From Octopus vulgaris (taxonomy: Eukaryota), in the NCBI GenBank assembly GCA_951406725.2, contig OX597819.1:2852001-2916000 (forward strand): a stretch of DNA of 64,000 bases. Reading direction: 5' to 3'. Position 1 is the first letter of the stretch; each line of letters opens with the position of its first letter. Positions 11,863 through 60,839 of this stretch are shown in pieces. The position numbers and the translations under genes were made by a program. Under the pieces are notes generated by a model, which was given only the letters and a program-made list of their open reading frames with translations, was not told where the DNA came from and made no database searches.

Positions 11863-12033
11863 CTCGATATTAAAATATGGAGCCAAATAAACAGCATTCC
11901 AGATGTTTTCACTTTCATATTTCATGTACTTCTCAGCCATTGTATTCATATCTAGTTTTTGGCGACAATGGTTATAATCACATGTCTGCGATCCATTTTT
12001 CTTTCTTATAAAACATTGGTCATAAAGAGAACC
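11863..12033 (-). CDS. CTBS: CTBS-like GH18 gene, coding exon 6 (GSLYDQCFIRK...IWNAVYLAPYFNIE)
   Basis: cacttag| acceptor, |gtaaaa donor, 171 nt open, phase 0-0; W...APYFN matches chitobiase W...APYYNY. Confidence 0.85.
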
Positions 12034-12146
12034 CTAAGTGAAAAAAATAATATCAATTTAATTTGTAAAATTTTTCATTCATTTCTTTATCATCATATTA
12101 ATTACAGATTATTGTAGCTTACTAGAAGCATTGTGTATTGTCTGTA

Positions 12147-12408
12147 AAATATAACATGTCTTGAATGGCACAACAATGCAGAGTGGACTATACTAAGTGT
12201 TATAATTTAATTATCCACAGTCTGATAAGATAATATCATTTTGGAATATAAAAATTCCTTCTTCGGATATTGCTAGGAATTGATCGAGTCACTGCTATAA
12301 GCAATCAACTCCTAGAAAGAATTTTTATATTCCAAAATATTATATCAGACTATGAATAATTAAATAGTCTACTCTGCATTGTTGTGCCATTCAAGACACG
12401 TTATATTT
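12147..12408. repeat. Foldback (MITE-like) inverted repeat, arms about 90-110 bp
   Basis: aaatataacatgtcttgaatggcacaacaatgcagagt...ttttggaatataaaaattc is mirrored by gaatttttatattccaaaa...actctgcattgttgtgccattcaagacacgttatattt. Confidence 0.9.
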
Positions 12409-13013
12409 CACAATCATAATTTTTTTAACGTATTTTTTATGATTCTTAAATGCAGTTAATTTGTAAATGACATCAAATGTTAGATGGAAAAATGAGGAAT
12501 AAGTCAAATTTATCACCTGAAACTATCATGAAAAACATCAATAAAAATAAATGAATAAATAAATATCTGTATTGAAACTATCGTTGTAAAAAGAGTTGTT
12601 TTAATCAAGTAAGGAGAATAGTCATTGAACTTTATAAAATTGAACTTTTTTCCTTTTATGGAAAATATTACAGATGCTGAATTACCTCCCTTTAACTATA
12701 AATTCCGTATGTTCTTAAGGGGAGCCATATCGAACAACTCGGGATAAATTTCTGAGAAGATCGACTCATCGTCATCAACATTTAACACCCATTTTCCATG
12801 CTGGCATGGGTTGGACGGCTTGACAAGAACTGACAAGACCAGGGGCCACACCAGGTTCCATAGTCTGTTTTGGCTTGGTTTCTATGGCTCGATGTCCTTC
12901 CTACCGCCAACCACTTTGCAGAGTGTAGTAAGGTGCTTGTGATAGATATAATAAACAACATGTAATGAAGTTTTAACGTATTAGAAATGATAGAAAAATA
13001 ATAATATACTTAC

Positions 13014-13120
13014 ATTTCCTTTGGGTTTAAAAATATCACAGAGGTAGACATAGCCATGCCATGGTACACTTAAAATAAATTTTTGAGGAGAAACACCACT
13101 GACCATGTATTCATCAAAAC
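13014..13120 (-). CDS. CTBS: CTBS-like GH18 gene, coding exon 5 (FDEYMVSGVSPQKFILSVPWHGYVYLCDIFKPKGN)
   Basis: ttgctttcag| acceptor, |gtaagt donor, 107 nt, phase 1-0; P.K.ILSVPWHGY is the GH18 P.KLVMGVPWYGY motif. Confidence 0.9.
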
Positions 13121-13249
13121 CTGAAAGCAAAAAAAAAATAATAATTAAATATCTACCTTAGAATTATCTTGAAATTCTGACTGATAACTGATATTATACT
13201 AACAACAAAGAACAATAAATGAATGTCAAAAATGTTTAGCTAATGATAG

Positions 13250-13720
13250 GTGACCATGAATAAGTCTCCTTCCATCTCCTCTGTCCACTATTCCTGGGAT
13301 GGTCATGAGGGGAGAGTCCTCAAGCACCTCCTCCACTGGGTCCTGTCAGAAGCAACCATCATTAGACATTCTAGCTGGATTCCCAAGCATGACCAACTAA
13401 GACTATGGATATTATCCAACCATCTTGTTCGTCTACCCCTAGGTTTCCTGCCAGTTGGCTTGGCTTGAAGAGTTCATCTTTCAATTCTTTCCTATGACAT
13501 TCTAATCACATGTCCATAGTACCAGGGCTGTGACCTCCCGAAGTGGGGAAGTATCAGCTCGACCTGGAGAGACTCCCTAATCATTCCATTGAGTAAGTTA
13601 ATGAGCTACACATTCCATTGAGTAATGTTACTCCAAAGACCCTTCGGAGGAACACCATTTCAGCTAATTGTATTCACAGTCCAATTCCTTTGGTCATTAC
13701 TCAACAAGAGGTATGGAAAC
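13250..13720 (-). mobile_element. Decayed RTE-clade LINE C-terminal remnant
   Basis: Minus strand PTGRKPRGRRTRWLDNI resembles the RTE R.RGRP..RW.D.I motif. Confidence 0.5.
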
Positions 13721-14089: not shown

Positions 14090-14188
14090 CATGCTTTCCG
14101 AAATCCGCCGAAACTACACCTGATTATATATACACTTTGGATGATTTGTAGTGCACCTGAGCACTGTACACAATTATTATTATTATTA

Positions 14189-14222: not shown

Positions 14223-14224
<2 letters not shown>

Positions 14225-16004: not shown

Positions 16005-16176
16005 CAAAGTGTAGTTTAGTAATTGGAACAGCGGCTTGAGCCAAACAATGAGTCTCTTCATGATTTATAAAGCTTTCAGCGTTAAGCATAAATTTATCAC
16101 ACACACTAAGCATTTTCTTTATAAATTTGCACTGATATTCACGACAAGGTGGGAACCAACTGATAAGGCACAGAAA
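16005..16176 (-). CDS. CTBS: CTBS-like GH18 gene, coding exon 4 (FLCLISWFPPC...CDKFMLNAES...CLAQAAVPITKLHF)
   Basis: tttttacag| acceptor, |gtaagt donor, 172 nt, phase 0-1; aligns with chitobiase VAWSP...CDFLFVMSYD...CIAAANAP. Confidence 0.88.
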
Positions 16177-17678: not shown

Positions 17679-17729
<51 letters not shown>

Positions 17730-20176: not shown

Positions 20177-20391
20177 GGATATATTAGAAGAAACGGAAAC
20201 CAAATTAGATTTCAATTCTGATATCACATCGGTAATCACAGTCACGTTTTCTGCAGTCAAGTCTGATGAAGTCAGCCGAACCATATCTAGTAAATAGATA
20301 TCTACAAAGAACTCAGCTACTTTATTTTTCTCTTTATGTATCCAAGACTTAATTTCCTTTTCCTCCTGAAGAGATTCTTCATGAAGTTTGC
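20177..20391 (-). CDS. CTBS: CTBS-like GH18 gene, coding exon 3 (contains degenerate catalytic motif DIYLLDMV)
   Basis: ttttactttccag| acceptor, |gtaagt donor, 215 nt open, phase 1-0 joining exons 2 and 4 in frame; SWI...K......D....D matches chitobiase SWI..K...MDGINIDIE spacing. Confidence 0.82.
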
Positions 20392-25331: not shown

Positions 25332-25482
25332 CAGTATAGCCATATCTTCGTCCTTTTGAATGAGTATAGCACATCAAGGTAGGATCCGGTTCATCTACAC
25401 TGATTACACTGGATATCAATTCCCAATTCCAGTCCTTCCAGGTTTTCCTTGGTTCGTTATAATCATCGGACATAACAAACAC
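25332..25482 (-). CDS. CTBS: CTBS-like GH18 gene, coding exon 2 (VFVMSDDYNEPRKTWKDWNWELISSV...DPTLMCYTHSKGRRYGYT)
   Basis: tttaatag| acceptor, |gtaaaa donor, 151 nt, phase 0-1; strong match to chitobiase VFVF..KTWKSYDWSQITTV...DSELMCYAHSKG. Confidence 0.93.
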
Positions 25483-25879
25483 CTATTAAAAAATAAAAAC
25501 AATTAAATACATTTTTTTTTTTAAATACGAACAAACATAAAAATGTGGTCATATTCATTTAGTTAAGAAATGTACTTTGCAAATACATGGACCAGAGTTC
25601 ATTCCCACAGTGCAACACCTAACACAAGTATCTTCTACCATAAACTTAGACTCATAAATGCATTAAAGGTGGAATTTTCTACACACAAGCTATACAGAAG
25701 TCTATTAGTTGTTTTGTTACCTACCAACTTCCTACCTACCTAGATACATACATTTGTCTATGTATTTTGTATAGGGGTACAAATGTGACTGTGTGGTTAA
25801 GAAGTTTGCTTCCCAACCACAGGATTTCAAGTTCAGTCCCATTCTGTGACACTTTGGGTAAGCAGCTTCTGCTACATAA

Positions 25880-26205
25880 TATCATCATCATCTTCATTTA
25901 ATGTCCGTATTTCATACTAGCATGGGTTGGGCGGTTCAACTGGGGTCTGGGAAGCCAGGAGGCTGCACCAGGCACCAGTCTGATCTGGCAGTGTTTCTAC
26001 AGCTGGATGCCCTTCCTAATGCCCACCACTCCGTGAGTGTAGTGAGTCCTTTTTATGTGCCACCGGCACAGGTGCCAAGCGAGGCTGGCAACGGCCACGA
26101 TTGTTTAATGCTTTTTACGTGCCACCAGCATGGAAGCCAGCTGAGGCAGCGCTGGCAACGGCCACGTTCGGATGGATCTTTTTACGTGCCACAGGCACTG
26201 GTATC
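25880..26205 (-). mobile_element. RTE 3' UTR fragment with (GAT)n tail and about 3 copies of the 61-bp unit
   Basis: Similar to 53329-53640. Confidence 0.75.
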
Positions 26206-27861
26206 ACACGTGCATCTGTGTATGTGCATGGCTGTGGGTGTGTCAGTGTTTCCTTATCTTGACATTATGTGCTAGTTGTAGACAAGTGTCACTGTCATAT
26301 AAGCAGTGTCCTTTGTTTCCAATCTTCCATGAAAACATGTCTGACTATAAGAAATATTATCTTATTTGGAAATAGGTGAGAGTTGGCAACAGAAAGGGTA
26401 TCCAGCCGTAGAAAATCTGCCTCAACAAATTCCATCCAGCCCATACACGTATGGAAAAGTGGACATTAAACAATGATGATAATGATATATTATACAAAAG
26501 AAGATTTGTAAAATCCAGGTTACTACTTGAGTCAGTGTAGAGGCACATGGCTCATTGGTTAGAATGTCATGAGGTAGTGAGTTCTATTCCTGGACCAGGC
26601 TGCATGTTGTGTTCTTGAGCAAGACACTTTATTTCATGTTGTTCTAGTTCACTCAGCTGTAGAAAGGAGTTGCGACATCACTGGTGCCAAACTGTATCAG
26701 CCTTTGTCTTTCCCTTGGATAACATTGGTGGTGCAGAGAAGAGAGGCTGGCATGCATGGGTGACTGCTGGTCTTCCATAAACAACCTTGCCCAGAGGGGA
26801 ATCTCTAGGTGCAATCCCATGGTCATTCATGACTAAAGTAGGGTTGGGGTCTTTACCTCAGTCAACACTCATGCAAATACTGGCTAACAGTATGTATGGA
26901 AGGAAACAATCCTTCAGTAGGAGAAAATGTTCCTCACCGACTGAAAACGGAGGAAATATTTCATCAATCATATGATATAACAAGCCAAAAAAATGGAGGC
27001 ACTGGTATTACATTTACTCTTAGGCTGCAACTGTTTCAACAACAGATAGAGCAGATAAAGCATTTAACATGGGGGAAAACACATAACCATGAATATAAAC
27101 AGTGATTATGTAATTTTAACCTATACCACATGTGACCCACTTGTCATCTCATTGAAACCAAATGAACAAATCAATATATGGCGGTGCCTCAGCATGGTCG
27201 CAGCTCTCAAGCTGAAACTAGTAGAAGACAAAAGACATAAGCACTGGAATGAATGCAGTTATAAATACACAATCAGTGGGAGACGTAGTGTTGTGTTGTA
27301 GCAAGGAAGCAAACACTTTGACAATGCAAATAAAAGACAGAGAGACCAAAGATGCTTCAATCTTTTAATCTTTTACTTGTTTCACTCATTTGACTGCAGT
27401 CTTGCTAAGGCACCATTTTCAAAGATTTAATCAAACAGATCAACCCCAGTATTAATTTTTTTAAGTCTGGTACTTATTCTATCAGTCTCTTTTGCTGAAC
27501 CATTAAGTTACAGGGATGTAAACAAACCAATACCAGTTGTCAAGCAATGGTGGGGGACAAATTCAAACCACACACACACACATGCAAACACCAAAAAGCA
27601 TCCAATCCACACTGTAAAGTGGTTGGCGTCTGTAAGGGCATCCAGCTGTAAAAACCGTGCCAAAACCGACCTCACCTATGTTTGTGCCACACAAAAAGCA
27701 CTTTGCCACCTTGCTGGACGGTTGGTGTTAGGAAGGGCATTCAGCAGTAAAACTGTGCCAAGACAAACACAGAAGCCTGATGCAGGTTCCTGCCTAGCCA
27801 GCTTTTGTCATATCATCCAACCAATACCAGCATGGAAGGCAGACATTAGATGGTGATGATG

Positions 27862-27905
<44 letters not shown>

Positions 27906-28128
27906 GCAGTATGTTTCTTTCAGTTTCCAGCTACCAAAACACACTCACAAGGGCTATAACAGACAACATCTGCCCAAGGTGCTATGCAGTTGGACTGAAT
28001 CTGGAGGCCGTGTGGTTGGGAAGCAAACTTCATACCATGATAAAATTGGTTGTAATACTGACGTTACTAACCAGACCAGACCGGACAGCCAAATAGTTGG
28101 CTGCTCATGTAGGTAATGCGGCATTTAA

Positions 28129-28332
28129 CCTTTTAGTGTTTAAACTGGCCATATCCAGCTCAAATATCTGACCTGTTTTGTGTTCAAACTGGCCAGTTCT
28201 GGCCTCTCACACTTCACCTACAATGCAAAATAAGCAATCACATTGTTTAAATCTCATAGCTATAAGATAATATAGGATTAATTCAAAACAATGTGAATAA
28301 ATAAGAATTGCCTTTGACAGAATGCTAAAGGG
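28129..28332. mobile_element. piggyBac-type MITE, 204 bp
   Basis: ttaa|ccttttagtg...aatgctaaaggg|ttaa. Confidence 0.7.
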
Positions 28333-33743: not shown

Positions 33744-33794
33744 GCATTCTGGAAAGATTTACTTAAACCAGTAAATTCAAACGATCGTAAATGC
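33744..33794 (+). ncRNA. Relic minimal type I hammerhead ribozyme (core mutated) in the Penelope 3' region
   Basis: gcatt-CTGGAAA-gatttact/taaacc/agtaaatt-CAAA-cgatcg-TA-aatgc: helices I and II and palindromic helix III intact, three core substitutions. Confidence 0.55.
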
Positions 33795-44615: not shown

Positions 44616-44762
44616 ATAGTCGTGATTCATATCGAGCCCTTCTGGGTATTAGCGCGAGTCTACGATGAGTCTATGATTTTACAAATAATTTACCATCATT
44701 TTTTTCCATTTTAATGCATATTTTTTTAATAAAGGGAAGTAACTCTCAAACTTCACACCAAT

Positions 44763-45284
44763 ATGCGTGCTCATATGCGACGTAATATCACATCAGCAGC
44801 ATTTCCTCACACCCTCCTTGCACTTGGTGAAGGCAAAATACCAGGGGATGAAAATGGTAATATTGCCATCGATTCCATTTGTACCATTGTTAAGACGCCT
44901 TCTGATCTCAGAGATGCAGTGTTCCCATATCTACAAGCTAATTATCAGAATATGGATTGGATTGGCAAAAAGGCTATACTTGCCCCGAGGAATAAAACTG
45001 TTCACCATATTAATGATGAAATGCTAAAACTCATTCCTGGGGAAGTCTATGTATATCAGTCTATTGATACAACTCCTGACTCAGAGGACGTCATCAACTA
45101 TCCAATAGAGGTACTCAATTCCTTTGAGCACCCCGGACTACCACCACACTTTCTCAAACTTAAAGTTGGTGCCCCTATAATGCTCATCAGAAATTTGGTT
45201 CCCCCAAAACAATGCAATGGCACACGTTTGATCGTTAAGTCCTTATCTCCCACCATAAACTTATATCAATATTTGCCTGAATAA
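44763..45284 (+). pseudogene. Helitron Pif1-like helicase fragment
   Basis: NMR..., AILAPRN, YPIEVLNS....GLPPH.LKLKVGAPIMLIRNL...CNGTRL. Confidence 0.85.
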
Positions 45285-45360
45285 TCATCATAATTCAGTG
45301 CAATCATTAACAGTACTTTAAAGCAATTCAGCCCCGAGCAACGCCGGGCAATTCTGCTAG

Positions 45361-46051
45361 TATATATATAAAACTCAACTTGTGTGTCTGTGTGTGTGTA
45401 TGTGTGTTTAACTTCCCGGCACATCTCCTCCTAGCCAACAAATCGTAGAACCACCAAAAATGGGTCACTTAAAGTTTAGGCAAATGAAAATTGGACTGCG
45501 CTATTTCTGTTCCGAAATTCATCTCGCAAGTGCAAAAATCGATAATGTGTTTGTTTAGGCCTTATCCCATGCATTGAATAGTGAACTTTACTCAGTCAGC
45601 TGTTTGACGTGAACTGTGTTCACCACGCGTGCAAGCATGTGTAAATTGCATGAAAAATAAAAAATCAAGATATAAAAACGAATCGCCGTAAACATTGTAG
45701 AAATTTGACAAAGAAATGAATTTTCGGGATGTAGCCTGGCAGGTTTTTTCGTATTAATTGTTTGGACTTTGTGAACACATACCAATTGTTTTCATAACAT
45801 TTTTAACACTTTGGATTAAATGTGACCATTTTGCATTGAGTCTGCAGTTTGAATCACTTTAACCAAATTTTAGCAGGCCGGAGCAAATCTATATATATAA
45901 AGCTGAAGTTGTCTGTGTGTGGCAGGTTTGGTAGCCTTCAACTAACACTATCTCCTTATAACAAGTTGCATAATGCAAAATTTTTACTTTTCAAAAATTC
46001 CAATTCTAAAGGGTCGAAACAAACCCAAGCAACACCGGCTGATACTGCTAG
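45361..46051 (+). mobile_element. Additional short Helitron segments (a complete 164-bp mini element at 45888-46051)
   Basis: TATATATAAAACTC and A|TCTATATATATAAAGC starts; gcaacaccggctgatactgCTAG|T end. Confidence 0.6.
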
Positions 46052-46629
46052 TATATATATCATCATCATTTAACGACTGTCTTCCATGTTGGCATGGATA
46101 GGACAGTTGACAAGAGCCGACAGGGTAGATGACTACCCCGGACTATTGTGTCAGTTTTCAGCGTTTTTAAGACTGGATGCCCTTCCTAACACCAACCACT
46201 CTGCAGAGTGGACTCAGTGCTTTTTACAAGGCACTAACAAAGGCAAGGTTAGTTTTGGCATGATTTTTACAGCTTGATGCCCTTCCAAATGCCAACCACT
46301 TTACAATGTGAACAGAATGCTTTTTCTGTGGCACCAGCACTGGCCGCATCACCAAGTAACTTGCAAGACAAGGTATTTTATATGTAACGGTTACAAGTTG
46401 CATTATATAGACAAAACAAAAATGAACAAATATGCACAATAACATTAAAACAATTGACTTACTCTTTAAAAAAAATAGAGGACAAAAAAAATGTAGTATT
46501 TCATTTAGATATATTAAATCATTTTTACCTTACACTCCAACCAGTTTACACTCTAAGAATACTTCAATGGAAAATGAGAAAAGTAGGTACAGTAATGAAA
46601 ATATATGGAGAAAAGAAATTGTTGCAGGA

Positions 46630-47423
46630 AGCTCATAAGAAATGAGGCTAGTATGCTTCGCTAGATGTGTAATGTCAGTGTACATGCATGAGAGAATATA
46701 AGCACCCTGAGAGAAAAGTTGGGCACAAGAGGCATCAGATGTGATGTGCAAGATAGACAACTGCACTGGTATGGTCATGTGATGCATATGGACAAAGACA
46801 GTTGCGTGAAGAAGTGCTGCATTGCAACTGTAGAAGAGGTAAACATGGGACGAGGTGGTGAAGCATGACCTTTGAATGTTGGGCCTCACAGAGGCAATGA
46901 CAAGTGACTGAGACTTTTGGCGATATGCCGTGCTTGAGAAGACCCACCAAGCCAAGTGAGATCACAGTCGTGGCCAATGATGGTGTCATGCAACTGGCAT
47001 GTAAAAAGCACCCTTCAAACGTTGGGCAATATGCTGTACTTAAGAAGACCTGTCAAGCCAAGTGAAGTTGTAGTCATAGCTAATATCAGTGCCATCAGAC
47101 TGGCATCTGTGCTGGTGGCACATAAAAAGCACTGTTCAAGCATTAGATCTTACAGAGGCAGTGACAGGGGACCAAGACCTTTGTTGATATACCGTGATTG
47201 TGAAGTTCTGTCAAGCAAAGTGAGATTGTAGGCATGGCCGATGCCAGTGTCATGTCAATGGTACCAATAATGGTAGCATGCAAAAAGCACCCATAACACT
47301 CTTGGAGTGATTGGCATTAGGAAGGGCATCCGGCCATAGAAACTATGCCGAATCAGACCGGAACCTGGTGCAGCTCCCTAGCTTAACAGTTTTCAGTCAG
47401 GATGTTAAATGATGATGATGATG
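46630..47423 (+). mobile_element. Decayed RTE 3' part with 3'UTR and (GAT)n tail
   Basis: RNEASMLR.MCNVSV...LHWYGHV...TWDEVVKHDL remnants, then aaaagcaccc units and gatgttaaatgatgatg. Confidence 0.8.
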
Positions 47424-48416
47424 TGTTCAGTAAGGAATTTAAATGAAAATTTAAGGTGGTTTGACCCTTTTGGTGCCAACAAATCTCAGACTGCCCCTAG
47501 TTCTGTGCTACAAACATCTTGTTTCACCCTTTGGCATTCACATTATTCAGTCAAAAGTAATGCTTATTTATTCACATTCTGTAGAATTAATCATGCATTA
47601 TCTTGTAGCTTTAAGATTTTGATGAGGTAACTGTTAAATTTTAGAATGATAGTGTAAGAGTTTGAACATAAAACTGGTACAATATTTGGGTTGGATATAA
47701 AGGGTTTAAAGTGGCATAAATTAGAAACTTTCCATAAAAATTTCATATTTTGTTCCAGACACCACTTTAATAATTGATAAAATTATTTTATTAAATTCTG
47801 CATTGCTTTCAAAAATTAATTGAAGAAAAGGCAGGGATTGTAACTTAAATATGGCAACAAATGGGTGAAACAATAAAGTAAGGAGTGTTAAATCAAGAAC
47901 TTTATTGCCGTCCATGATGAAGAAGTTTTGAATGCTTGCCATGGTGAGTCTACTGTCGTGAGAAAGAATCAATTCAAAACTTGGTGTTTAGGAATTTTCT
48001 TTTACAACAAGTTCAAAATTTTACGCCAACGCGCCAACCGTTAAACTGCCACTACGTTGCTGTCCGTCGTTAAGAAATGCCAGCCATGGTGACTCTACTA
48101 TCCTCACATTCTATCCCTTCAAACTTTGGTTTCCAATATTTTATTATTTTTATTCAGCTCGCAAGTTCATCTGTCCCTTTTAAATGTTTTGCTGTCTGCC
48201 TTGAAGCAGACCTTTCCGTTGCCACTGCCTGATATTTATGATTGATCTTTCTAAATATTTTATTTCTCAACTTACTCAAGATCTTTTGTTGTTTATAAAT
48301 GGGAGAGAGATAGATAAAGATAGAGAGTAAGAGAAAGCGAGGGAGAGTCCGAGAGAAAAGAAAAGTAAGAGAGTGGGGAAGTGAGAGAGAAAGGAGAGAG
48401 AAATAAAGAGGGAGAA

Positions 48417-48728
48417 TCATCATCATCATCATCATCGTTTAACGTCCATTTTCCGTGCTAGCACGGGTTGGGCGGCTCAACCGGGGTCTGGGAAGCCAGG
48501 AGGCTGCACCAGGCTCCAGTCTGATCTGGCAGTGTTTCTACATGTGGATGACCTTCCTAACGCCAACCACTCTGTGAGTGTAGTGGGTGCTTTTTTCGTG
48601 CCGCTGGCACAGGTGCCAGGGGGGCTCGCAGCGACAACGATCAGTTGGTGCTTTTTACATGCCACCGGCACAGAAGCCGGTCAATGCGGCGCTGCAATCG
48701 GCCACGTTCGGATTGTGCTTTTTACGTG
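48417..48728 (-). mobile_element. RTE 3' UTR fragment with (GAT)n tail
   Basis: catcatcgtttaacgtcc...ggtgcttttacgtg units. Confidence 0.8.
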
Positions 48729-48797
48729 CTGAAAGGAAGCAACAGAAAGTAACAACCACACTCTTACCCGCGCGTAGAGCGGGTCACCTTCAGCTAG

Positions 48798-50209
48798 TAT
48801 ACTTATATAAATTGAATATGGGCGATCATTGTATTCTTTCTTTCTTGTCTTGAGGTTCACAGCCAAATGGCTCAGTGGATTCACATGAAAAATGGCACAC
48901 AGGTGGAGACAGGTCCATAGATTGTGTTGCTGTTTGTATTTGTTTCGTAGCCCCCCATAGTTACCGAGAAAATCGAATAAGCGGTAAAAATCGATTTTCA
49001 ACCATATCTTTTACCAATTTCGAAGTTTGGCTAAAATGAGTTATATTGGAGTGAAAGCGTGTGTGTGAGGGAGAGAGAAGTTGTGTGTTGATGTATGTGT
49101 GTGAGGGAGGTTCATCAAAAATGTAAAATGTTTTCTTTTTTCTTAAACACGAGATATAGTCTTCAAATTTAGGATGTTTTTGAAAGATACTATATTTTAT
49201 AATCAGATTATATATACTTTCTCACACAACAATCAAAAGATATTTATTTTAAATCACTTATTTATTTATCTATAAAAGGAAGGATGTGTGTGTGTGTGTG
49301 TGTGTGTGTGAATGTAATTTATGCACATCCACTAATTAGCACACATGTCGCTCCAATTTTACGACATTGGTCACGATCATGGCTGTGTTTTTGTCAACTT
49401 CTTTTCCCCAAAACACCTGCAGATAGTGGTAAAAATCGCTTTCAAGCATAACTTTTACCAATTTTCACGTCGGTGATATCCGTAAGTTTACTAATATGAG
49501 TTAAGTCACCTGTCTAGTAATAGCAAGAAAGAAAAACAAAGGGTAAACTTTTAGATTAACACCTGCACAATTTTCATTAAGAAAAAAGAAAAAAACTTGA
49601 ATTTTTTGCATGGAATCAAGTGCCCTGACCTCCTAATATGCTGCAAATCCCTTATTTTGGTTTGGAAAGGAGGGGGGGTAGGACGGGGGTTGCATATCTT
49701 GGAATCATTGGAAATTTTCTTTTTTTCATTGAATGAATTCCTGTGACTTCCTAATGTACTACAAAACCCTTTTTTGAGAACCGAAAAATGGGGTGGCATG
49801 CGGTTGAAGCCTTGGAAAATTTCCCCCATCCCACCCCCATTAAGCTTTTCACCCATACGATTTTCAGTAAGGAATAAAAATTAAAATTGGATTTTTTTTT
49901 GCATGAAATCAAGTATCTTGATCTCCTAATATGCTGCAAATCCCTTATTTTGGTTCAGAAAAAAGTGGGGTAGGGCGAGGGGGAACCCCACCATCCCGGA
50001 ATCATTGGAATTTTTTTTTTCGTTCAATGAACTCCTGTGACCTCCTAATATGCTACAAAACTCATTTTGGGTCCGTAAAACAAGGTGAGGTGAGGTGGAA
50101 GCCTCGGAAATTTTACCCACTCCCAACATTTTACAGAAATAAGTTTTCCAGAGTGTGAATTAAATGGCTCGTTATTAAATATATATACAGTAGAGAATGT
50201 GACATATTA

Positions 50210-50258
<49 letters not shown>

Positions 50259-51048
50259 GTGTGCAAGCCTTCAATGCAACCTTCTCCAATGCATATCTTA
50301 GTACCCCTAGGAGGGGTTAGGTCTAGATCGGGATTAGTCACTGCCTTTCAGAGGTTTCTGAGGCCCCTTTCACTAGGTTAGCTTAGGCTTATGTTAAAGC
50401 TTAGTTATTTAGCTATTTTCCTTGCAGGAAGGGCTCCAAATCCATGGACCAAGTGGGGTTAGATGATGGGAGTGGTGGTTTCGAAACCTGATCACATCTG
50501 CCAGTCAAACCCCCAATGCATGCATTCCTGTCACGACACTGATTCTGCAGAACTGGGTTGAGTGTGAAAACCAACTTTAAAGTATATAGATTTTTTTGAA
50601 TCAGCAATGTTGTGTTCGGTTAAGTCCTATTTGGGGTGAAAAATCAATAAACTGATTCCTTATGGGATTTTCCATTCAATCAGGATGAAAAATCGATAAA
50701 CCAATTCCTTATAGGATTTCTCACTAAAATTGGCTACACCCCATTTTCAACCATAACTTTTACCAATTTTGATATATTTTGTTCAAACTTGATGCCGGCG
50801 TTACTAAGCACTCATGGGATCTTTGAATGCTCTAAGTTCTCAAAAAAAAAAAAACAATCAATAAACCAATTCCTTATAGGATTTCCCAATCAAATTGTCT
50901 GCAACCCATTTTCAGCCAAACGTTTACCAATTTCAACGGATTTCACTCAAATTTGACGTCAGTGTTACTTAGTTTGGTTTGAAACAAAGCACTTGATTAG
51001 ATTAATAATCCTAACTTAATCCCAGGCAACACCGGGCTATACTGCTAG
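48798..51048 (+). mobile_element. Non-autonomous Helitron with internal repeats (about 290-bp duplication 49605/49897; short repeats 50630-50960)
   Basis: Follows another Helitron 3' end (acccgcgcgtagagcgggt..CTAG, 48797); ends cccaggcaacaccggg..CTAG|T. Confidence 0.65.
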
Positions 51049-51835
51049 TATATATAATTGTTAAAGAGGACAACAAACGTTATGGCAAGGCAAACATCTC
51101 AAACATCTGACATAAAATAGAGAAATGTTTTAGTTTCACTTTTAACACGTAATACTGAAATAGTGGAGAAGATATGATATTGCTATGGGCTCGCTCTAGG
51201 CAAGAAGTTGAACATTTTTTTTTGCCCATGAAACTACATGGACCCTAAGTAAGGCATGTGTAAAATTTGAATGAAATTGGTTGAGTAGTTCTCAAGTTTT
51301 AGGGAAACACACAGACAGACACACATTGTCAGTTTTATATATAGAGAGATACATGGCTTAGTGGTATTCAGGGTATTCAGCTTACAGTGGTATGGTCGTG
51401 ATTTCAATTCCTGGTGACGCATTGTGCTCTTGAGCAAGACACTTTATTTCTTGTTGCAACAACCACATTAAAGAATATCCTGGGTGCTTTTTGATGTGGT
51501 GCATGAACCAGTGGGGTCACCAAGTAACATGCAAGACCCTCAACTGAAGGGGTAACTTTGAGCCAGATGATGAAAAGTTAGAATATGGTAGGGGATCAGT
51601 AACAGGTATCTTGCTGTAGAGACTATACATGGCTACCCCAGGTGGTAAAAGACAGATGGTGAAGATGTGAGACATGCCCTCAAGTTAAAGGGAGGTGTAT
51701 ATAAGCATGGACACACACACACACATGCAAATATACACACACACACACATGTATACTTACATATAATATACATATACATACATATATACATACATATATA
51801 TACATATACATACATATATACACATACACACATAC

Positions 51836-51875
<40 letters not shown>

Positions 51876-52055
51876 GTTGCTTTATGAACAAATAAGAAGA
51901 GAGTAATCAATTCATGTTGTAGAGGATGTGTTTGTCTTTTTAATTGAAGCTCAACATTTGTCTCACAACTCAAGTTTCACACCAATGTGATTTTCACAGT
52001 GGCATGAAACTCAATTCATGAAGCAAACTCTGTGTCAGTTTCAATTAAAAAAATA

Positions 52056-52100
<45 letters not shown>

Positions 52101-52301
52101 TCATCATCGTTTAACGTCCATTCTCCATGCTAGCATGGGTTGGACGGTTCGACCGGGGATCTGGGAAGCCAGAAGGCTGCACCAGGCTCCGGTCTTATCT
52201 GGCAATGTTTCTACAGCTGGATGCCCTTCCTAACGCCAACCACTCCGTGAGTGTAGTGGGTGCTTTTTACGTGCCACCGGCATATATATATATATATATA
52301 T

Positions 52302-52478
52302 AGGCGTAGGAGTGGCTGTGTGGTAAGTAGCTTGTTTACCAAACACATGGTTCCGGGTTCAGTCCCACTGCATGGCACCTTCGGCAAGTGTCTTCTACTA
52401 TATATACATATATAGGGTCGACCAAAGCCTTGTGAGTGGATTTGGTAGACAGAAACTGAAAGAAGCTCGTCGTATATA

Positions 52479-52557
<79 letters not shown>

Positions 52558-52760
52558 CTGTGTTTGTCCCCCCAACATCGCTTGTCAACCGATGCTGGTG
52601 TGTTTACGTCACCGTAACTTAGCAGTTCGGCAAAAGAGGTTGATAGAATAAGTACTAGGCTTACAAAGAATAAGTCCTGGGGTCGATTTGCTCAACTAAA
52701 GGCGGTGCTCCAGTATGGCCACAGTCAAATGACTGAAACCAGTAAAAGAGTAAAAAGAGA
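52302..52760 (+). mobile_element. Full-length tRNA-derived SINE with central (TA)n(TG)n
   Basis: A box gagtggctgtgtggtaag, B box ggttcagtccc, 3' gactgaaaccagtaaaagagt; about ten partial or complete copies in the window. Confidence 0.85.
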
Positions 52761-53498
52761 GTATATACAATCCATCTGATGCTATTTGTCTATCCTGCAC
52801 CTAACTCAGTTTGGATCTTGAGTCCATAGATAGCGGTGCAATATATGCAGTGAGCATACCCCATGCCATGTATGACCTCTGTGACCCATATATCCAGTCA
52901 GCCATTTGTGAATGTATGCACAACTGGAGTATAAATCCGTGTTTACTTTAGTAAGTATGTATTTGTCCTTAAATATTGTTTGTACATGATAATGCTATTA
53001 CCGACCTGACCTTGATGGTTTATGCATATGTATGTATATATATATATATATTTGTGTATATATATATATATATATATAAATATATATTTGTGTACATATA
53101 TATATATATATATTTGTGTACATATATATATATATATATTTGTGTACATATATATATATATATATTTGTGTACATATATATATATATTTGTGTACATATC
53201 ATCATCATCATCATCATCATCGTTTAACGTCCGTTTTCCATGCTAGCATGGGTTGGACGGTTCGACCGGGATCTGGGAAGCCAGGGCTGCACCAGGCTCC
53301 AGTCTGATCTGGCAGTTGTGTGTATATATCATCATCATCATCATCATCATCGTTTAGCGTCCGCTTTCCATGCTAGCATGGGTTGGACGGGTCAACTGGG
53401 GTCTGTGAAGCTGGAAGGCTTCGTCAGGCCCAGTCAGATCTGGCAGTGTTTCTACGGCTGGATGCCCTTCCTAACGCCAACCACTCCGCGAGTGTAGT

Positions 53499-54295
53499 GG
53501 GTGTTTTTTACGTGCCACCTGCACAGGTGCCAGACAGAGCTGGTGAACGGCCACGAACGGATGGTGCTTTTACGTGTCACCGGCTCGGGGCCAGGCGATG
53601 CTGGCAACGGACACAAACGGATGGTGCTTTTACGTGCCACCGACACGGGGCCAGACAGAGCTGGCAACCGGCCACGAACGGACGGTGCTTTTACGTGTCA
53701 CCGGCACGGGGGCCAGCCGAGGCTGGCAACGGATGCGAACGGATGGTGCTTTTACGTGCCACCGACACGGTTGCCAGACAGAGCTGGCAAACGGCCACGA
53801 GCGGACGGTGCTTTTACGTGTCACCGGCACGGGGGCCAGCCGAGGCTGGCAACGGACGCGAACAGATGGTGCTTTTACGTGCCACCGACACGGTTGCCAG
53901 ACAGAGCTGGCAACGGCCACGAGCGGACGGTGCTTTTACGTGTCACCGGCACGGGGGCCAGCCGAGGCTGGCAACGGACACGGACGGATGATGCTTTTAC
54001 GTGCCACCGACACGGGGCCAGACAGAGCTGGCAAATGGCCACGAACGGAAGGTGCTTTTACGTGCCACCGACACGGGGCCAGACAGAGCTGGCCAACGGC
54101 CACGAACGGACGGTGCTTTTACGTGTCACCGGCACGGGGCCAGGCGAGGCTGGCAACGAACACAAACGGATGGTGCTTTTACGTGCCACCGACACGGGGC
54201 CAGGCAGAGCTGGCAAACGGCCATGAGCGAATGGTGCTTTTACGTATCACCGGCACGGGTGCCAGACGAGGCTGACAGCGGACACGAACAGATGG
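53499..54295. repeat. GC-rich tandem array, about 13 units of about 61 bp, mostly alternating two variants
   Basis: ggtgcttttacgtg(t/c)caccg recurs every 60-62 bp. Confidence 0.93.
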
Positions 54296-54342
54296 GTCAC
54301 TTAACCCCTGCTTTCTGATATATGATTTGATTTTGATTGTTC

Positions 54343-55677
54343 TCACTGGTCTTTCCGGGTCTTCTCACGCACAGCATACTTCCATAGGTCTCGGTCTCTG
54401 GTCATTTCCTTGGTGAGACCTAGAGTTCGAAGGTCGTGCTTCACCACCTCGACCCAGGTTTTCCTGGGTCTACCTCTTCCACAGGTCCCCTCAACTGCCA
54501 GGGTGTGGCACTTTTTCACACACCTATCTTCATCCATTCTCACCACATGACCATACCAGCGCAATCGTCTCTCTTGCACACAACATCTGATTCCTCTTAG
54601 GTCCAACTTTTCTCTCAAGGTACTTACACTCTGTCGACTATGAACACTGACATTACACATCCAACGGAGCATACTAGCTTCATTTCTCGCGAGCTTACGC
54701 ATGTCCTCAGCAGTCACGGCCCATTTTTCACTGCCATGTAGCATGGCTGTTCGTACACATGCATCATACAGTCTGCCTTTTACTCTGAGCGAGAGGCCTT
54801 TAGTCACCAACAGAGGTAAGAGCTCCCTAAACTTTGCCCAGGCTATTCTTACTCTAGCCGTTACACTTTCAGAACACCCACCCCCACTACTGACTTGGTC
54901 ACCAAGATAACGGAAGCTATCAACCACTTCTAGTTTTTCCCCCTGGAAAGTGACGGAAGTTGTTTTCTGCAGATTTTCAGAGGTTAATGCTCCCGAGCAT
55001 CTGCCACATACAAAAACCATCTTCCTAGTTAGCCTTCCTATGACATTGCTGCACCTCTTATGTGTCCATAGCTTACACTTGGTGCATCTTATAGAGTTTC
55101 TACCTACACCTTTTCTACAGATCGAGCAGGGCCATCTACCTGAAGGCGTTTGTGATTTGTCTACCTTCCTACTTATTACGACTTTGGTTTTAGCTAGGTT
55201 GACTCTAAGGCCCTTCGATTCTAAACCATGCTTCCACACCTGAAACTTCTTCTCCAGTTCTGATAATGACTCAGCAATTAGAGCAAGGTCATCAGCATAG
55301 AGGAGCTCCCAGGGGCATCCTGTCTTGAATTCCTCCGTTATTGCCTGGAGGACTATGATAAATAGGAGGGGGCTGAGGACTGAGCCTTGGTGGACCCCTA
55401 CCTCTACCCGGAATTTTTCACTGTACTCATTTCCAACCCTCACCTTACTAGCAGCGTCCCTGTATATGGCTTGCACAGCTCTCACTAACCATTCTTCTAT
55501 TCCTAGTTTCCTCATTGACCACCATATGAGGGATCGGGGGACCCTGTCGAAGGCTTTCTCCATGTCAACAAAAGCCAGGTACATGGCCTTATCTTTGGCT
55601 AGGTATTTCTCCTGCAGCTGCCTTACCAGGAATATAGCATCAGTGGTACTTTTCCCTGGCACGAAACCAAACTGCAT
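54343..55677 (-). CDS. RTE LINE ORF2 reverse transcriptase (444 aa open segment) with inserted PHD finger
   Basis: QFGFVPGKST, FVDMEKAFDRV, GVHQGSVLSPLLF, YADD, FRYLG, RLRWYGHV; upstream part in ORF 55688-55960 after a frameshift. Confidence 0.9.
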   Translation of the reverse strand: MQFGFVPGKSTTDAIFLVRQLQEKYLAKDKAMYLAFVDMEKAFDRVPRSLIWWSMRKLGIEEWLVRAVQAIYRDAASKVRVGNEYSEKFRVEVGVHQGSVLSPLLFIIVLQAITEEFKTGCPWELLYADDLALIAESLSELEKKFQVWKHGLESKGLRVNLAKTKVVISRKVDKSQTPSGRWPCSICRKGVGRNSIRCTKCKLWTHKRCSNVIGRLTRKMVFVCGRCSGALTSENLQKTTSVTFQGEKLEVVDSFRYLGDQVSSGGGCSESVTARVRIAWAKFRELLPLLVTKGLSLRVKGRLYDACVRTAMLHGSEKWAVTAEDMRKLARNEASMLRWMCNVSVHSRQSVSTLREKLDLRGIRCCVQERRLRWYGHVVRMDEDRCVKKCHTLAVEGTCGRGRPRKTWVEVVKHDLRTLGLTKEMTRDRDLWKYAVREKTRKDQ

Positions 55678-56745
55678 CTCATCTAAACTAACTCTCTCTA
55701 ATTAGTTGGCTTATGACCCTCTCTGTAACCTTCATCACCTGATCCAACAGCTTGATACTTCTGTAATTATTTGTATCTAGGGCATCACCTTTACCTTTGT
55801 AGCAGTTGACTATTATGCTGCTACACCAGTCATTGGGTATGACTCCTTCATGTATCACCTGATTAACTATACAGGTGACTAGGCTATAGCCGACACTACC
55901 AGATATTTTGAGCATCTCTGCAGTGATACCTGATGGGCCTGGGGCTTTCCCTGTCTTCATGCTTCTAATTGCCTTAGCTACTAAGGAACTATCAACCCTG
56001 ATAGCTGGTCCCTCTGTTGGGTCAACGTTCGGCAGACTCTCTTTATCCCATTCATTTTATCGAAGACGGGGGCATATAGAAGACATAGGGAGAGGGACAG
56101 GGTTAGTTTGGGGAGGAGGGGGGGGGAAGAAATGGTCAAGGAACACATGTGCGGAAGCTGTGCGATGGGTTATTTGTGTGTATATATATATATGTATGTA
56201 TATATACATATATATTTGTATATATTTATATTTATATAAATATATATATATATTTGTATATATTTATATGTATGTGTGTATTTGTATATATATGTGTGTG
56301 TATATATTTGTATACACACACACACACACACATATACACTTGAAAGAAGGAAAAAAATGGTCTGCTAAAATGAATACATAAACACACAAATGCCATCCAA
56401 AGGTATATCTTATTTCCCCTCTCATGATATTATGCTCATAAGTGCAGATCTCCAATTTGCTGTTAATAATAAACAATCATTAACTTCCCGATCTCCATTT
56501 TCTTCCTCTTTTAAATTAATATAAACTATGTTTTTACATTCACCTATTATTTTAAGGAAATTCATTCCCCAAAAATACTAGGTATTGAGCCAGTATTTCC
56601 TTGGACGAACGATCCCTTCATGAGATTAACACAACCTCTAATTAACCTGAGCATCAAATTAATATACCTGCTTGTTGTTTATACACCTGACTTCATCTTT
56701 TGTTTTTCTGTAAATTTAACTATATGTATATATATATATATATAT

Positions 56746-58237
56746 ATATTATAATAAATGTGAAATTCTGTCCATCCGTCTGGAACTTCTTTATCTCAGT
56801 CTACCTTTTTGGAATCAGGATGATCCCGGGATTGAAAATCTGCCCTTCATTTGGTTCTTGAGCATCCAGCATTTGGGAGTAGGTCTGGATGAGGATTTGT
56901 TATGTGCTAACAGTTGAAAATTCAAATTTTAAAAGAACTCCAAAAATTTGTGAACTTACAAGTTTTTCATTAAACTGAATTTAAAGTACTACCAAAACTT
57001 TGTGAATTTAAAAAATATTTTCAATTCAGTTCATTTAAAACTAGATCCAAGTTAGAGTGAAATATTGAAGAACTTGAGCTTTTGACCCAAATAGGAGTTA
57101 GACTTGGATGCTGAAAGACTTGCAGCTCCGCTGTAGGATCTGATAAATGAAAGCATTCAGCAAGACAGTAATGGAGACATCACTTTTCCAAATGGCTGTG
57201 GTATTTTGGTCAAAACTGTAGAAGAGTTGATTACCAAGATTTACCCAACCGTTGGACATAATTTTCAATATCATAATTGGCTTTGTGAAAGAGCAATACT
57301 TGCATCAAAGAATGAAACTGTCCAGATTGTTAATTGGAAACTTATGCTCAGAAATCAATACTCAGAAAAAAATTTATTTCGCATCTGATTCATCATCGTT
57401 TAACGTCCGTTCTCCATGCTAGCATGGGTTGGACGGTTCGACCGGGGTCTGGGAAGCCAGGAGGCTGCACCAGGCTCCAGTCTGATCTGGCAGTGTTTCT
57501 ACAGCTGGATGCCTTTCCTAACGCCAACCACTCCGTGAGTGTAGTGGATGCTTTTTATGTGCCAGGGGAGGCTGGCAACGGCCACGATTGGTTGGTGCTT
57601 TTTATGTGCCACCGGCACGGAAGCCAGTCAAATGACTGTGAATTATCCTACTGAGCTTCTTAACTCTGTGGCTCCTCCTGGAATACCTTGTCACAAACTA
57701 ACATTGAAGAAAGGAGTTCCAATCATGCTTTTGGGAAATCTGGATCTTCCAAAGCTGTGTAATGGAACAAGACTGATTGTCAGGCAAATGCATTCATATC
57801 TTTTGGAAGCAACAATTCTCACAGGACAAGGAAAGGGAGACAATGTGTTTATTCCAAGAATTCCCCTGATTCCAGAAGACATGCTCTTTGAATTCAAGAG
57901 ACTTCCATTTCCAGTCAGAGTTAGTTTTGCAATGTCAATTGACAAGAGTCAAAGACAATCACTGAAAATTGTTGGACTTCACCTCATGCAGCTGTGCTTT
58001 TTCCATGGTCAGCTTTATGTTGGTTGTTCCAGAAATGGCAACAATCACTTCATGCACCAAATGGTAAAACCAAGAATGTTGTTTATCCTGTTGCTTTACA
58101 GGGATCTCCAAATGTGATACTCTGTGATAGAAATCTGAGATGGTAGGGCACCAATAAATGGTTTATTATTATTGCACTCTTTAGCTTTCCACAGGAACCA
58201 TCTCAAAAGTCCACATGGAGTGCAGCTTTTAGGCTAG
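56746..58237 (+). mobile_element. Helitron remnant with Pif1-helicase fragments, interrupted by an RTE tail (57388-57630)
   Basis: WLCERAILA (57206-57388); ORF 57548-58117 LCNGTRL...FIPRIPL...[25 protein letters not shown]; ends CTAG|T. Confidence 0.85.
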
Positions 58238-58371
58238 TATATGTGTGTGTGTGTGTTTGTGTGTGTATGTATATATGTATGTATATAAGCCATAAGATGA
58301 CGCCATCCCACTGGCTGGGCGTGCTGTGGCCAGCGGTGTCAAATGGACGCCTGACGGACTGGTCGGTCAAG

Positions 58372-58419
<48 letters not shown>

Positions 58420-58516
58420 AATAAGGGTAGAAATTGATATTAGTCAATTAAAACCAGTGGCCCAGCATATTAAAAAGAATCCGAAGATTAAAATATTTTT
58501 ACATACAAAATTTAAA

Positions 58517-58750
58517 GGACAGACACATTTTACCTACTCTGACTTCCGTGACTTTACTTTAATGTCTACATCTATAATTAGTTATTGAAAACTTGTTTCT
58601 GGGTATTAAAAATACTTGCTCCTTGCTTAAATAAATCTAGAACTGTAGCGTTTTTGTTTCTGGAGATATTTAAGCAATTATGTTATACTTGATTTAATCC
58701 TACATTTCAAGATATACCTGTAATTGTCTAATTTTCCTACCTGAAACAAA
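58517..58750 (+). repeat. 234-bp direct duplicate of 61127-61360
   Basis: Ungapped match with 5 substitutions counted by eye. Confidence 0.95.
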
Positions 58751-60680
58751 GTGGACAGTCAACATGCTAGATATAGACGTCAAATCGCTATTTTCACAAA
58801 CACTCAACACATTTAGTAGGAGGTAGATTTATTATTTAAAACAGTTTGATTCAGTCCACGTAAAATAAGTTTCGCGGGCTTCTATTTGAGGGCCGTGTAA
58901 CTAAGTTGCATGGAGCCGAATCAAACTGTTTTAAATTATGTATGCATGCGTACATGTATGTGCAAGTATGTGCACATGTATGTTTGTATATATGTAAGTG
59001 CTTGTATGTATTATTTAAAACAGTTCGATGTGTGTGTGTGTGTACAATGACCTATTGATTTCGTATATTCGCGTGTATAAAAATCGATGTGCACCACCAG
59101 CACCTTCACCACACACCGAAGTTAATATTCAAATTTTCAGAAAAACAATCATGTATTTAAACTACCCGAGAAGCGCCTACGATGACTTTGTTTGTTTATA
59201 TGTGGTGTAAATGTTCCTAATTTTAGAGAAATACAGAAAAGGAAGTTACGTTCAGTATAATAAGGTAAACAATGTAGCTAAAGAAGTCAATTTAAGTATT
59301 TCTTAGCAGCAAGGGCCAGTTTATTTACAAAAACAATTCTACAGACATCACTATAAATAAATTCATCGCATGCTTATTTGCATCTGTCCTTACTTGGCTG
59401 GAAGATGTTGTCATGGAGAGATAGATAGAGGTACTCAAAGTATCTTTACCAAATACAAATACTATTTGGATTGGGGATTTCTAAACGAGCTAAGTTATTA
59501 GAAATAGATGTGGCCTATCTGGATAAATAAAGAGAAGTGATGCAAATAATGTTGTAATTTACACTGTTAAGAATTACTAACGTACATAACAACCTTGCAT
59601 GATCTTACCTGTCCTCAGTACAAAAAAAAAAAGGTAATGTACACAAATGGTTTCGGTAAAGAGAAAATCGTGTGGGTGAAAGTATCAAGATTTACAATGG
59701 TTTTCTAGGTTAATTAAGCACATGACAAATCTATCGGAAATAAGCATGGATATCTTTTGAAAAGACAACATGCTCTCATGTACAATTTATTTAATATTTC
59801 ATGTAAGTGGCGGGCTGGGTTATTGTCAATGAGATCGAATGCAATTAATTACTGGCATCGTTGACGCTGAGGAGAATGGAACCTTGTCTGGTTAACAAAT
59901 TCAAAACTAAAAGTCTAAGCCGGTTTTTTTCTTCTTCTTTCTACCATTCACCACGCCCTTCGTAGTATGTTTATCTTTTATGCCTTTTTCTAAAAGTAAA
60001 AAAAAAAAAAGTCAGTAGATTTAATTTATTGACACCGTTATTTGTAACTAATCCAATAATATTTTATTTGGCAAAAGACCCACTTTGTTTAATCCTCAAA
60101 TCGGGTAGATCTATAATCAAAGATGTTCCAACCCCATTTATCAGGTCTTTTTGTATACATTTCCTGACGTGTCCTTCGTATTTAAAACAATGCAATATAC
60201 TTTGGTGAAGGGGTATTTGGCTACAGTTTCTAGCAGGTCGAGAGACCGTATAGGGGGGCGGGCTAGTTGACTGGAGCACCTTCCTGTAAATTGGGGTGAT
60301 ACAGTCAACTGAGTGATTTGCTGAACCTTACATTATCGATCACAAACATAGGCAAAGCCATTGACAATAAGACTCCAAACGATCGAGCTAAACAATAGTG
60401 TAGAAACTATATTTATATGTAGGCCTACATGTTGTTTCCACTTTTACTTTTCACCTTTGATTTCTATAGATTCTTAATCCCTTCTCAGCTATATATATAT
60501 ATATATGTGTGTGTGATATGATATGATATACGGTTGGGTAGGGTAGCATTCCTCAGAAAAAAAGTTAATCAAAATAACATAAAGCTATCTTCACACTCCA
60601 TGTAATCCATCCAATGGTATGAACTGATACAGAGTAAATAAAGATTATAACAAGAGGAAATTAAATGATTGAGTACTCGC

Positions 60681-60839
60681 CTCCTTTCCTTCGAATTCGA
60701 GTCCATCTGGTACGCGCTGACACTGGCTTTTCTCCTCACACGTACAATCCTGTTGGTTGTCGATACTATGACAGCATAATAGGATCGACAAAAGTAAAAT
60801 CACAGTCGGAATTATGTATTTACTGAAGGATTTAGTCAT
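60681..60839 (-). CDS. CTBS: CTBS-like GH18 gene, coding exon 1 (signal peptide and CTC...C motif)
   Basis: ATG at 60839; hydrophobic signal IIPTVILLLSILLCCHS; DCTCEEKSQC matches chitobiase DCPCPEPELC; ends GAG|gcgagt, giving KE|VFV with exon 2. Confidence 0.8.

Follow-up and report, generated by a model that had tools for sequence, protein, structure and literature searches.

A Membrane-Anchored Chitobiase Paralogue without the Catalytic Glutamate, Predicted from the Genome of Octopus vulgaris and Found across Molluscs

The window analyzed here is a 64,000-nucleotide stretch of the 2.8 Gb genome of Octopus vulgaris (G000:C6:2852001-2916000) that carries, on its minus strand, six of the nine exons of a gene whose product resembles di-N-acetylchitobiase (CTBS), the soluble lysosomal enzyme of glycoside hydrolase family 18 (GH18). 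An earlier note on this DNA had described these six exons as encoding an intact but apparently dead GH18 protein, and had proposed a secreted chito-oligosaccharide lectin. Sequence comparisons indicate that the gene is a CTBS duplicate by descent and that its product has lost the catalytic Glu. The complete protein is predicted to be a type I membrane protein and not a secreted one, because exons 7-9, which lie outside the window, add a transmembrane helix and a tail.

Exon Structure of the Gene and Contents of the Window

The six exons in the window concatenate to 975 nt, or 325 stop-free codons, which reproduces the in-phase model of the earlier note; all of the motifs that it quoted are found in their places, with DIYLLDMV at 20302-20279 and FMLNAES at 16092-16072 in a motif search. 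The coding part of exon 1 (60681..60839) provides the ATG, a signal-peptide-like hydrophobic stretch at residues 8-26, and a CxC motif, and ends at a GC donor. Its 5′ untranslated region covers at least 60840..60973, as contigs start at 60973 and 60951, which do not fix the true start. Intron 1 (25483..60680) is a 35.2-kb GC-AG intron of phase 0 that coincides in position with intron 1 of CTBS and holds retroelement and Pif1-helicase fragments. Exon 2 (25332..25482) encodes strands β1 to β3 with the WxW and LMCxxH motifs, and exon 3 (20177..20391) encodes strand β4, in which DIYLLDMV replaces the DGVNFDIE of CTBS and Val141 (codon 20281-20279) occupies the position of the catalytic Glu. Strands β5 and β6 are encoded by exon 4 (16005..16176), in which NAES (residues 207-210) replaces MSYD, and strand β7 by exon 5 (13014..13120) with its PWHGY motif, where a Tyr of CTBS has become His254. 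Exon 6 (11863..12033) contributes the insertion domain, with Cys residues and APYFN. The five acceptors of this model are AG and five donors are GT, with GC as the first donor.

Intron 6 is ~40 kb long in total, of which 1..11862 is its part in the window, and no further exon was found downstream of exon 6 within the window. The remaining exons lie 28-36 kb beyond it on the same strand: exon 7 (G000:C6:2823861-2823771) with the motif QIWFED; exon 8 (G000:C6:2820988-2820839), which encodes strand β8 with Trp360 and Asp364, the last helix, and a stalk; and exon 9 (G000:C6:2816146-2815992), which encodes a Gly-rich transmembrane helix (~407-430), a basic run, a tail with PFxxD and a terminal EExxxL, and the stop. 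The earlier gene model was therefore real in its six exons and incomplete in its extent. Exons 7-9 were located with an Argonauta hians protein as the query, and their splicing rests on public protein records. This protein of 451 aa, which is named di-N-acetylchitobiase-like and has at its C terminus a hydrophobic helix followed by a short tail, was itself retrieved with exon 2. The nine-exon model encodes 456 aa, the same sequence as that of the public Octopus vulgaris protein P0188.

Splicing of the exons in the window was traced in transcript-like contigs that skip the introns; the RNA status of the runs is a guess of the tool, and depth was not used. In contigs of all four runs, each from a different study, exons 2-3-4-5-6 are connected at GT-AG sites and match the genome letter for letter, and contigs of three of the four continue from exon 1 through the GC donor, their loose end being the start of exon 2; the fourth run gave nothing for this junction. 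Because the exon 1 contigs continue into exon 2, the 35.2-kb GC-AG intron is fixed, and the spliced model of the earlier note is borne out. Two exon 1 contigs (2002 and 1573 letters) equal those spanning exons 2-6 in length and depth. Four spliced contigs reach 554-907 letters beyond exon 6, where the remaining coding sequence amounts to 396 bases. An alternative exon 3 bearing the Glu, an escape that the earlier note had considered, is absent: DxxDxDxE or DGxNxDxE has no occurrence in the six frames of the window, and the contigs join exons 2-3-4 directly. Its exclusion of A-to-I recoding also stands, as the Val codon GTT contains no A; the contigs, which drop rare variants, show no differing letters in exons 2-6. 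Some annotations carry the gene in fragmented form: the database model of O. sinensis begins only at exon 3, and in O. bimaculoides an older model seems to read through the GC donor. Within exon 1, the genome and the contig of one run differ at 60780, 60832, ~60852-60860, 60917, and 60919, one of these differences being a 9-base gap that falls in the 5′ untranslated region, and the two versions are likely alleles.

The rest of the window is rich in mobile-element remains. Pfam confirms the reverse transcriptase of a retroelement without long terminal repeats (non-LTR) on the minus strand (54346-55701; E 3e-27). Remains of other non-LTR elements lie at 22764-23594 on the plus strand (a weak Pfam match) and, recognized by eye from the translation, at 9709-10392 and 37909-39754 on the minus strand, the latter including a stretch (38406-39302) that matches no Pfam family. 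Fragments of a Pif1 helicase 2B domain on the plus strand (44733-45281 and 57545-58114; Pfam E ~1e-15) are likely Helitron remains. A repeat-like stretch at 53377-54272 (+) has long open frames in several plus frames, and a stretch that looks similar by eye lies just before the last exon of the octopus CTBS gene (C5 ~52334260-52334660).

Descent from Chitobiase and Distribution among Molluscs

Two loci of this kind were found in the octopus genome. The Argonauta query also matches at C5:52334693, within the canonical CTBS gene (G000:C5:52303707-52334950, plus strand), which has seven exons and encodes 370 aa with DGVNFDIE and MSYD intact and no membrane helix; the separate Glu-bearing CTBS for which the earlier note had allowed thus exists, on another contig. 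All six CTBS introns coincide in place and phase with the first six introns of the window gene, which has two more. The six shared introns point to the origin of the window gene from CTBS. The two octopus proteins are 24% identical (blastp E 1e-34), and when 24 family rows are set against 26 Glu-bearing relatives in a profile-profile comparison (hhalign), the match has a probability of 100 and an E value of 1.5e-56 over 340 columns, so that the resemblance is not due to chance. Together, the introns and the profile match argue that the protein does not come from the chitinase branch, the tree described below having contained no chitinases. The likeness to CTBS extends over the whole domain and includes the N-terminal CxC, WxP..C, PWxGY, and QxWxD/E motifs. 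The octopus protein differs from CTBS in the loss of the catalytic Glu and MxYD, in its membrane helix and tail, in the two extra introns, and in falling into a separate clade.

The placement of Val141 on the catalytic Glu is given alike by a 153-row alignment, by the profile comparison, and by a manual count that starts at the intron which both genes have ahead of exon 3 and meets no gap before the motif in either protein. All three overrule a five-row MAFFT alignment in which the β4 register was shifted. In addition, the β4 motif closes strand β4 in the AlphaFold model of the Argonauta orthologue.

GH18 (PF00704) is the only Pfam domain found in P0188, which scores 31.0 bits against a curated cutoff of 29.6 (E 2.7e-7); the Argonauta protein P0001 scores 36.5 bits. 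Taken singly, none of the six window exons matches GH18 in Pfam, and exon 2 finds no GH18 match among PDB sequences. The AlphaFold model of the Argonauta orthologue, behind which stands an alignment containing many active chitobiases, has a mean predicted local distance difference test score of 88.5 and adopts a (β/α)8 barrel with a chitinase insertion domain. The Foldseek matches listed for this model are all GH18-type, and VIA-align gives a Z of 28.4 with root-mean-square deviations of 2.9-3.1 over ~300 residues. Prediction of a homodimer from two P0001 chains (residues 24-451, alignment not used) scored 0.09 where the mark is 0.32, which speaks neither for nor against a dimer.

A search of 1.84 billion cluster representatives returned 411 matches at E ≤ 0.001. 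Among the best 150 of the 411, which were examined, the top matches are proteins of ~450 aa that align through the membrane part. The alignment comprises 151 proteins and two octopus models (153 rows), one protein of 1611 aa being excluded. The family set consists of 19 rows, the window gene and the 18 top rows (P0001 and P0003-P0019), without the truncated O. sinensis model and fragments; P0020 and P0022 were set apart because their tails differ. Named members are from Argonauta, from the bivalves Potamilus, Pinctada, and Mya, and from the gastropods Haliotis, Patella, Biomphalaria, Candidula, and Babylonia, and public databases call the family proteins di-N-acetylchitobiase. A profile search of a large protein set gave five rows, all already in the sample.

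The tree was a quick IQ-TREE run of 50 rows and 333 columns without an outgroup, supported by Shimodaira-Hasegawa-like approximate likelihood ratio tests (SH-aLRT) only, from which the signal peptide, membrane part, tail, and catalytic columns had been removed. All 19 family rows fall on one side of a branch with an SH-aLRT of 100. Support is 100 for the cephalopod group and 85 for a group with the three named bivalves, and the gastropods split into two groups. On this sequence evidence, the membrane form is one clade spanning cephalopods, bivalves, and gastropods and is not confined to octopus. P0020, from the brachiopod Lingula anatina, and P0022, both with a C-terminal helix, fall between the family and 29 soluble relatives, with a support of 100 for their separation from the latter, and Lingula is likely the sister of the mollusc membrane form. 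In P0020 the catalytic Glu position carries Asp and KSDH stands for MxYD, an intermediate-looking state. The pattern fits a single old duplication before the mollusc classes split, probably also before the brachiopods branched off; the tree is unrooted, and the order of events around the duplication is inferred.

The same sample contains a second, independent group of chitobiase-like proteins without the Glu and without a membrane helix (P0024, P0026, P0028, P0030, and P0115; SH-aLRT 99), which stands beside vertebrate-type CTBS and comes from sharks, rays, and skates (Pristiophorus, Hypanus, Narcine twice, and Leucoraja). These are possibly true secreted lectins derived from chitobiase. Four other soluble chitobiase-like proteins (P0095, P0109, P0120, and P0035) have altered catalytic motifs, and three of them share a long separate branch.

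The Remodelled Pocket, the Membrane Helix, and the Tail

Human chitotriosidase uses Glu140 as the acid/base, Asp138 together with Tyr212 to hold the acetamido group, Tyr212 together with Asp213 to hold the -1 sugar, and Trp358 to stabilize the intermediate (bioRxiv 10.1101/2024.12.18.628861). In the family, the β4 Glu position is occupied by Leu (11 rows), Val (3), Met (3), Thr (1), or Ile (1) and never by Glu, and the Met, Tyr, and Asp of the β6 MxYD motif are each absent from all 19 rows. For comparison, the 81 Glu-motif relatives, which were picked by the β4 motif and hence have Glu there by selection, retain Met and Tyr in 81/81 and Asp in 79/81. The claim of the earlier note that this is an intact, conserved chitobiase paralogue lacking the catalytic Glu is upheld by these counts. 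Given the chemistry known for GH18, the loss of both the Glu and MxYD implies that hydrolysis does not occur, and the window protein is very probably non-catalytic.

Other pocket positions have become fixed within the family. Ser210 (Asp in CTBS), Glu337 (Asp in CTBS), and Asp364 (variable in the relatives) are found in 19/19 rows, His254 (Tyr in CTBS) in 18/19, and an acidic residue at 209 (Tyr in CTBS) in 17/19. Trp253 and Tyr256 are retained throughout and Asp139 in 15/19. The family-specific residues lie mostly at or near the strand ends, and active relatives mostly do not have them, which suggests a pocket that has been remodelled, not erased, with the site kept and its specificity changed. 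The β8 Trp, mapped by sequence, is present in octopus as Trp360 and is retained in only 11 of the 19 rows.

The lectin proposed by the earlier note fares unevenly on this evidence. In its favor, the Glu is replaced and Trp360 is kept in octopus; the reading is made doubtful by the loss of the β6 Met, Tyr, and Asp across the family and by the variable Trp. Its attribute "secreted" is not supported, as the full protein has a C-terminal helix and tail.

Hydrophobic peaks of the 456-residue protein lie at residues 8-26 and 407-425, and the AlphaFold model of the Argonauta orthologue has a long helix at 399-431. Exons 7-9 encode the end of the barrel, the transmembrane helix, and a cytoplasmic tail of 26 residues, and the same C terminus continues in O. 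sinensis, O. bimaculoides, and two further proteins of the cephalopod branch. The corresponding hydropathy mark is passed by 2 of the 81 Glu-motif relatives. It is almost certain from these features that the window protein is anchored in the membrane. Within the helix, Gly414 is invariant and Gly409 and Gly418 are nearly so; its identity is 20-22/23 among cephalopod-branch rows and 7-11/23 outside cephalopods.

The tail ends in [DE][DE]xxxL in 15 of the 19 family rows, as against a mean of 0.14 and a maximum of 3 in shuffled tails and 0/81 in the Glu-motif relatives, figures that are not probabilities because the rows are related. PFxxD is present in 17/19, an aromatic residue two before the acidic pair in 18/19, and a terminal Leu in 18/19. 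In 10 pairwise comparisons drawn from part of the family rows, conservation of helix plus tail exceeds that of the ectodomain in each of the four within the cephalopod branch (p 0.028, 0.0013, 1e-6, and 0.0004) and in two within the bivalve branch (p 0.015 and 0.027). EEXXXL has been described as a monoleucine pattern for basolateral sorting (PMC10940456). The tail is probably a sorting or adaptor signal.

Structural and sequence comparisons with known systems show partial likenesses only. The Glu-less GH18 barrel is shared with the chi-lectins YKL-40/CHI3L1, YKL-39, and Ym1 and with the insect imaginal disc growth factors (IDGFs), to which the structural scores are like those to chitinases (Z ~27-28). 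Chi-lectins and IDGFs are soluble and YKL-40 retains the β6 Tyr/Asp, whereas the mollusc protein is predicted to be membrane-anchored and has lost these residues. The octopus protein also differs from tobacco CHRK1, a plant GH18 receptor kinase, in having a 26-residue tail only and no kinase domain. CHRK1 lacks the catalytic Glu. Its extracellular GH18 domain, which is called predicted enzymatic in a review, is similarly joined to an intracellular part (PMC5485988). YKL-40 retains chitin binding and Trp352 (PMC11190707), and the chi-lectins group with the chitinases, apart from the chitobiases (PMC1945033).

For the tail, the closest likenesses are to sorting receptors and monoleucine-sorted proteins. 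With sortilin the family shares a type I layout and a short tail that finishes with an aromatic residue, an acidic cluster, and Leu; the cation-independent mannose-6-phosphate receptor is a comparable acidic-tailed sorting receptor. The sorting tail of sortilin includes HDDSDEDLLE (PMC3660575), to which the [YF]HDD of several family tails is close, a short-motif resemblance for which no homology is claimed, as the ectodomains are unrelated and the family has no DxxLL (0/19). Amphiregulin and betacellulin, which are monoleucine-sorted, have an acidic cluster 3-5 residues before a single Leu, similar to the EEXXXL-type end of the family.

A Putative Cargo Receptor and Its Alternatives

The reading that we favor, with a probability of about 0.45, is that of a non-catalytic receptor for glycan-type cargo in the membrane. 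The protein would enter the secretory pathway and stay in the membrane, and its tail would be read by trafficking adaptors that sort it between the cell surface and endosomes. The remodelled GH18 pocket would bind a ligand, most likely a glycan or glycoprotein containing N-acetylglucosamine (GlcNAc), in a mode unlike that of the chitinase -1 subsite, and the cargo would be handed over to the lysosome, the workplace of active CTBS. A wider version, doubtful when taken as a whole, would place the conversion from enzyme to cargo receptor before the mollusc/brachiopod split. It would make the family a class of endocytic or sorting lectins with a GH18 fold that has not been described before, which molluscs have retained since their classes diverged, whose acidic tail, in molluscs, converged on sortilin-type and monoleucine signals, and which would carry GlcNAc cargo (chitin or peptidoglycan fragments, glycoproteins) to the compartment of its active twin.

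Several observations weigh against the cargo receptor. The glycan-cargo step is its weakest part. The loss of the β6 Tyr/Asp that grip the -1 sugar, together with the variable β8 Trp (11/19), argues against ordinary chito-oligomer binding and so weakens a reading as a chito-oligomer lectin. The ectodomain changes fairly fast (310 of 354 residues identical to O. bimaculoides). None of the 19 tails contains a canonical DxxLL, [DE]xxxL[LI], YxxPhi, or NPxY signal or a class I PDZ end; the EEXXXL signals described so far belong to proteins of vertebrate epithelia, and the available text settles on no adaptor for them (PMC10940456). The excess conservation of helix and tail is not significant in four of the six non-cephalopod comparisons, all of them gastropod (p 0.19-0.74), and the two sister sequences, P0020 of Lingula and P0022, do not have the tail pattern. 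In addition, the family rows were chosen partly by the membrane helix and are mutually related, so that counts and shuffles are not independent trials, and the exon 7-9 junctions that supply helix and tail are supported by public protein records, not by reads.

The loss of the -1 subsite residues throughout the family could also be expected of a non-catalytic membrane scaffold or chaperone. The barrel would then be a protein-binding surface, the Gly-rich helix would pack on a partner such as a transporter or a chitin-making or glycan-processing enzyme, and the tail would steer the complex. The fixed Gly positions and the near-identity of the helix among cephalopod-branch rows, which go beyond the need of a plain anchor, fit such packing. 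The invariant family-specific residues at the strand ends, where the GH18 ligand site lies, fit a kept pocket instead; moreover, the helix is far less conserved outside cephalopods, and no partner is indicated by any result. We consider the scaffold possible, with the odds against it.

The distribution of the family, in chitin-secreting molluscs and Lingula, would suit a surface-tethered organizer of chitin fibers that holds or shapes nascent chitin, uncut, at the epithelia of radula, beak, shell, or pen. In a limpet, the radula formation zone exceeds muscle ~40-fold in the level of one di-N-acetylchitobiase (DIAC) transcript, and the limpet family member bears this database name; a second such transcript is lower there, and as either could be the membrane form, the observation is a lead only (PMC9263180). 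The EExxxL-type signal is basolateral in vertebrate epithelia, away from the face that secretes chitin (PMC10940456), scallop and oyster chitobiase genes are reported to be widely expressed, in a set that may or may not include the membrane paralogue (PMC7560691), and the sugar-holding residues are lost, all of which makes this role unlikely.

An enzyme with rebuilt chemistry, whose new catalytic or metal site would be composed of Asp139, acidic 209, His254, and Asp364, is less plausible still. Asp139 and acidic 209 co-occur in 15/19 rows, with His254 in 18/19 and Asp364 in 19/19; however, residue 139 is Asn or Lys in 4/19 and residue 209 is Ser or Lys in 2/19, unlike the catalytic residues of the active relatives, and residue 209 takes the place of the Tyr that holds the acetamido oxygen and not that of the acid. 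A secreted chito-oligosaccharide lectin of the YKL-40/IDGF type has the signal-peptide-like N terminus, the GH18 fold, the lost Glu, and the octopus Trp360 on its side, and the ectodomain could be shed, but the exon 9 helix and tail, which P0188 and the orthologues also have, the lost β6 Tyr/Asp, and descent from the chitobiase branch make it most improbable. A decaying pseudogene or mis-assembled model, for which the 24% identity to CTBS and the non-canonical first donor might speak, is refuted as far as sequence allows by the open frame, the splicing in four studies, and the full-length orthologues of cephalopods, bivalves, and gastropods.

GH18 proteins without activity are familiar; on the sequence comparisons, this one stands out by its descent from chitobiases, its predicted anchor, and its tail, which resembles a sorting signal. 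In the available texts, three animal GH18 groups are set out with the chitobiases treated as enzymes (PMC1945033), and the molluscan chitobiase motif is given as LDGXNXDXEX with no mention of a dead membrane form (PMC7560691). The animal GH18 pseudoenzymes described there are from the chitinase and stabilin-1-interacting groups, the chitobiase group appearing as plain enzymes (PMC1945033, PMC7560691). A literature search that left most subscription journals outside its reach found no published description of a Glu-less membrane chitobiase.

For molluscs, what expression studies record as "di-N-acetylchitobiase" in radula or mantle may be a protein that is no enzyme. If the protein is the receptor that we favor, it would be a concrete candidate for the sensing, uptake, or positioning of chitin-type glycans in molluscs. 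It would also offer a clean case of the conversion of an enzyme into a receptor, with an intermediate-looking form in Lingula, in which the Glu has become Asp and the anchor is present without the tail pattern.

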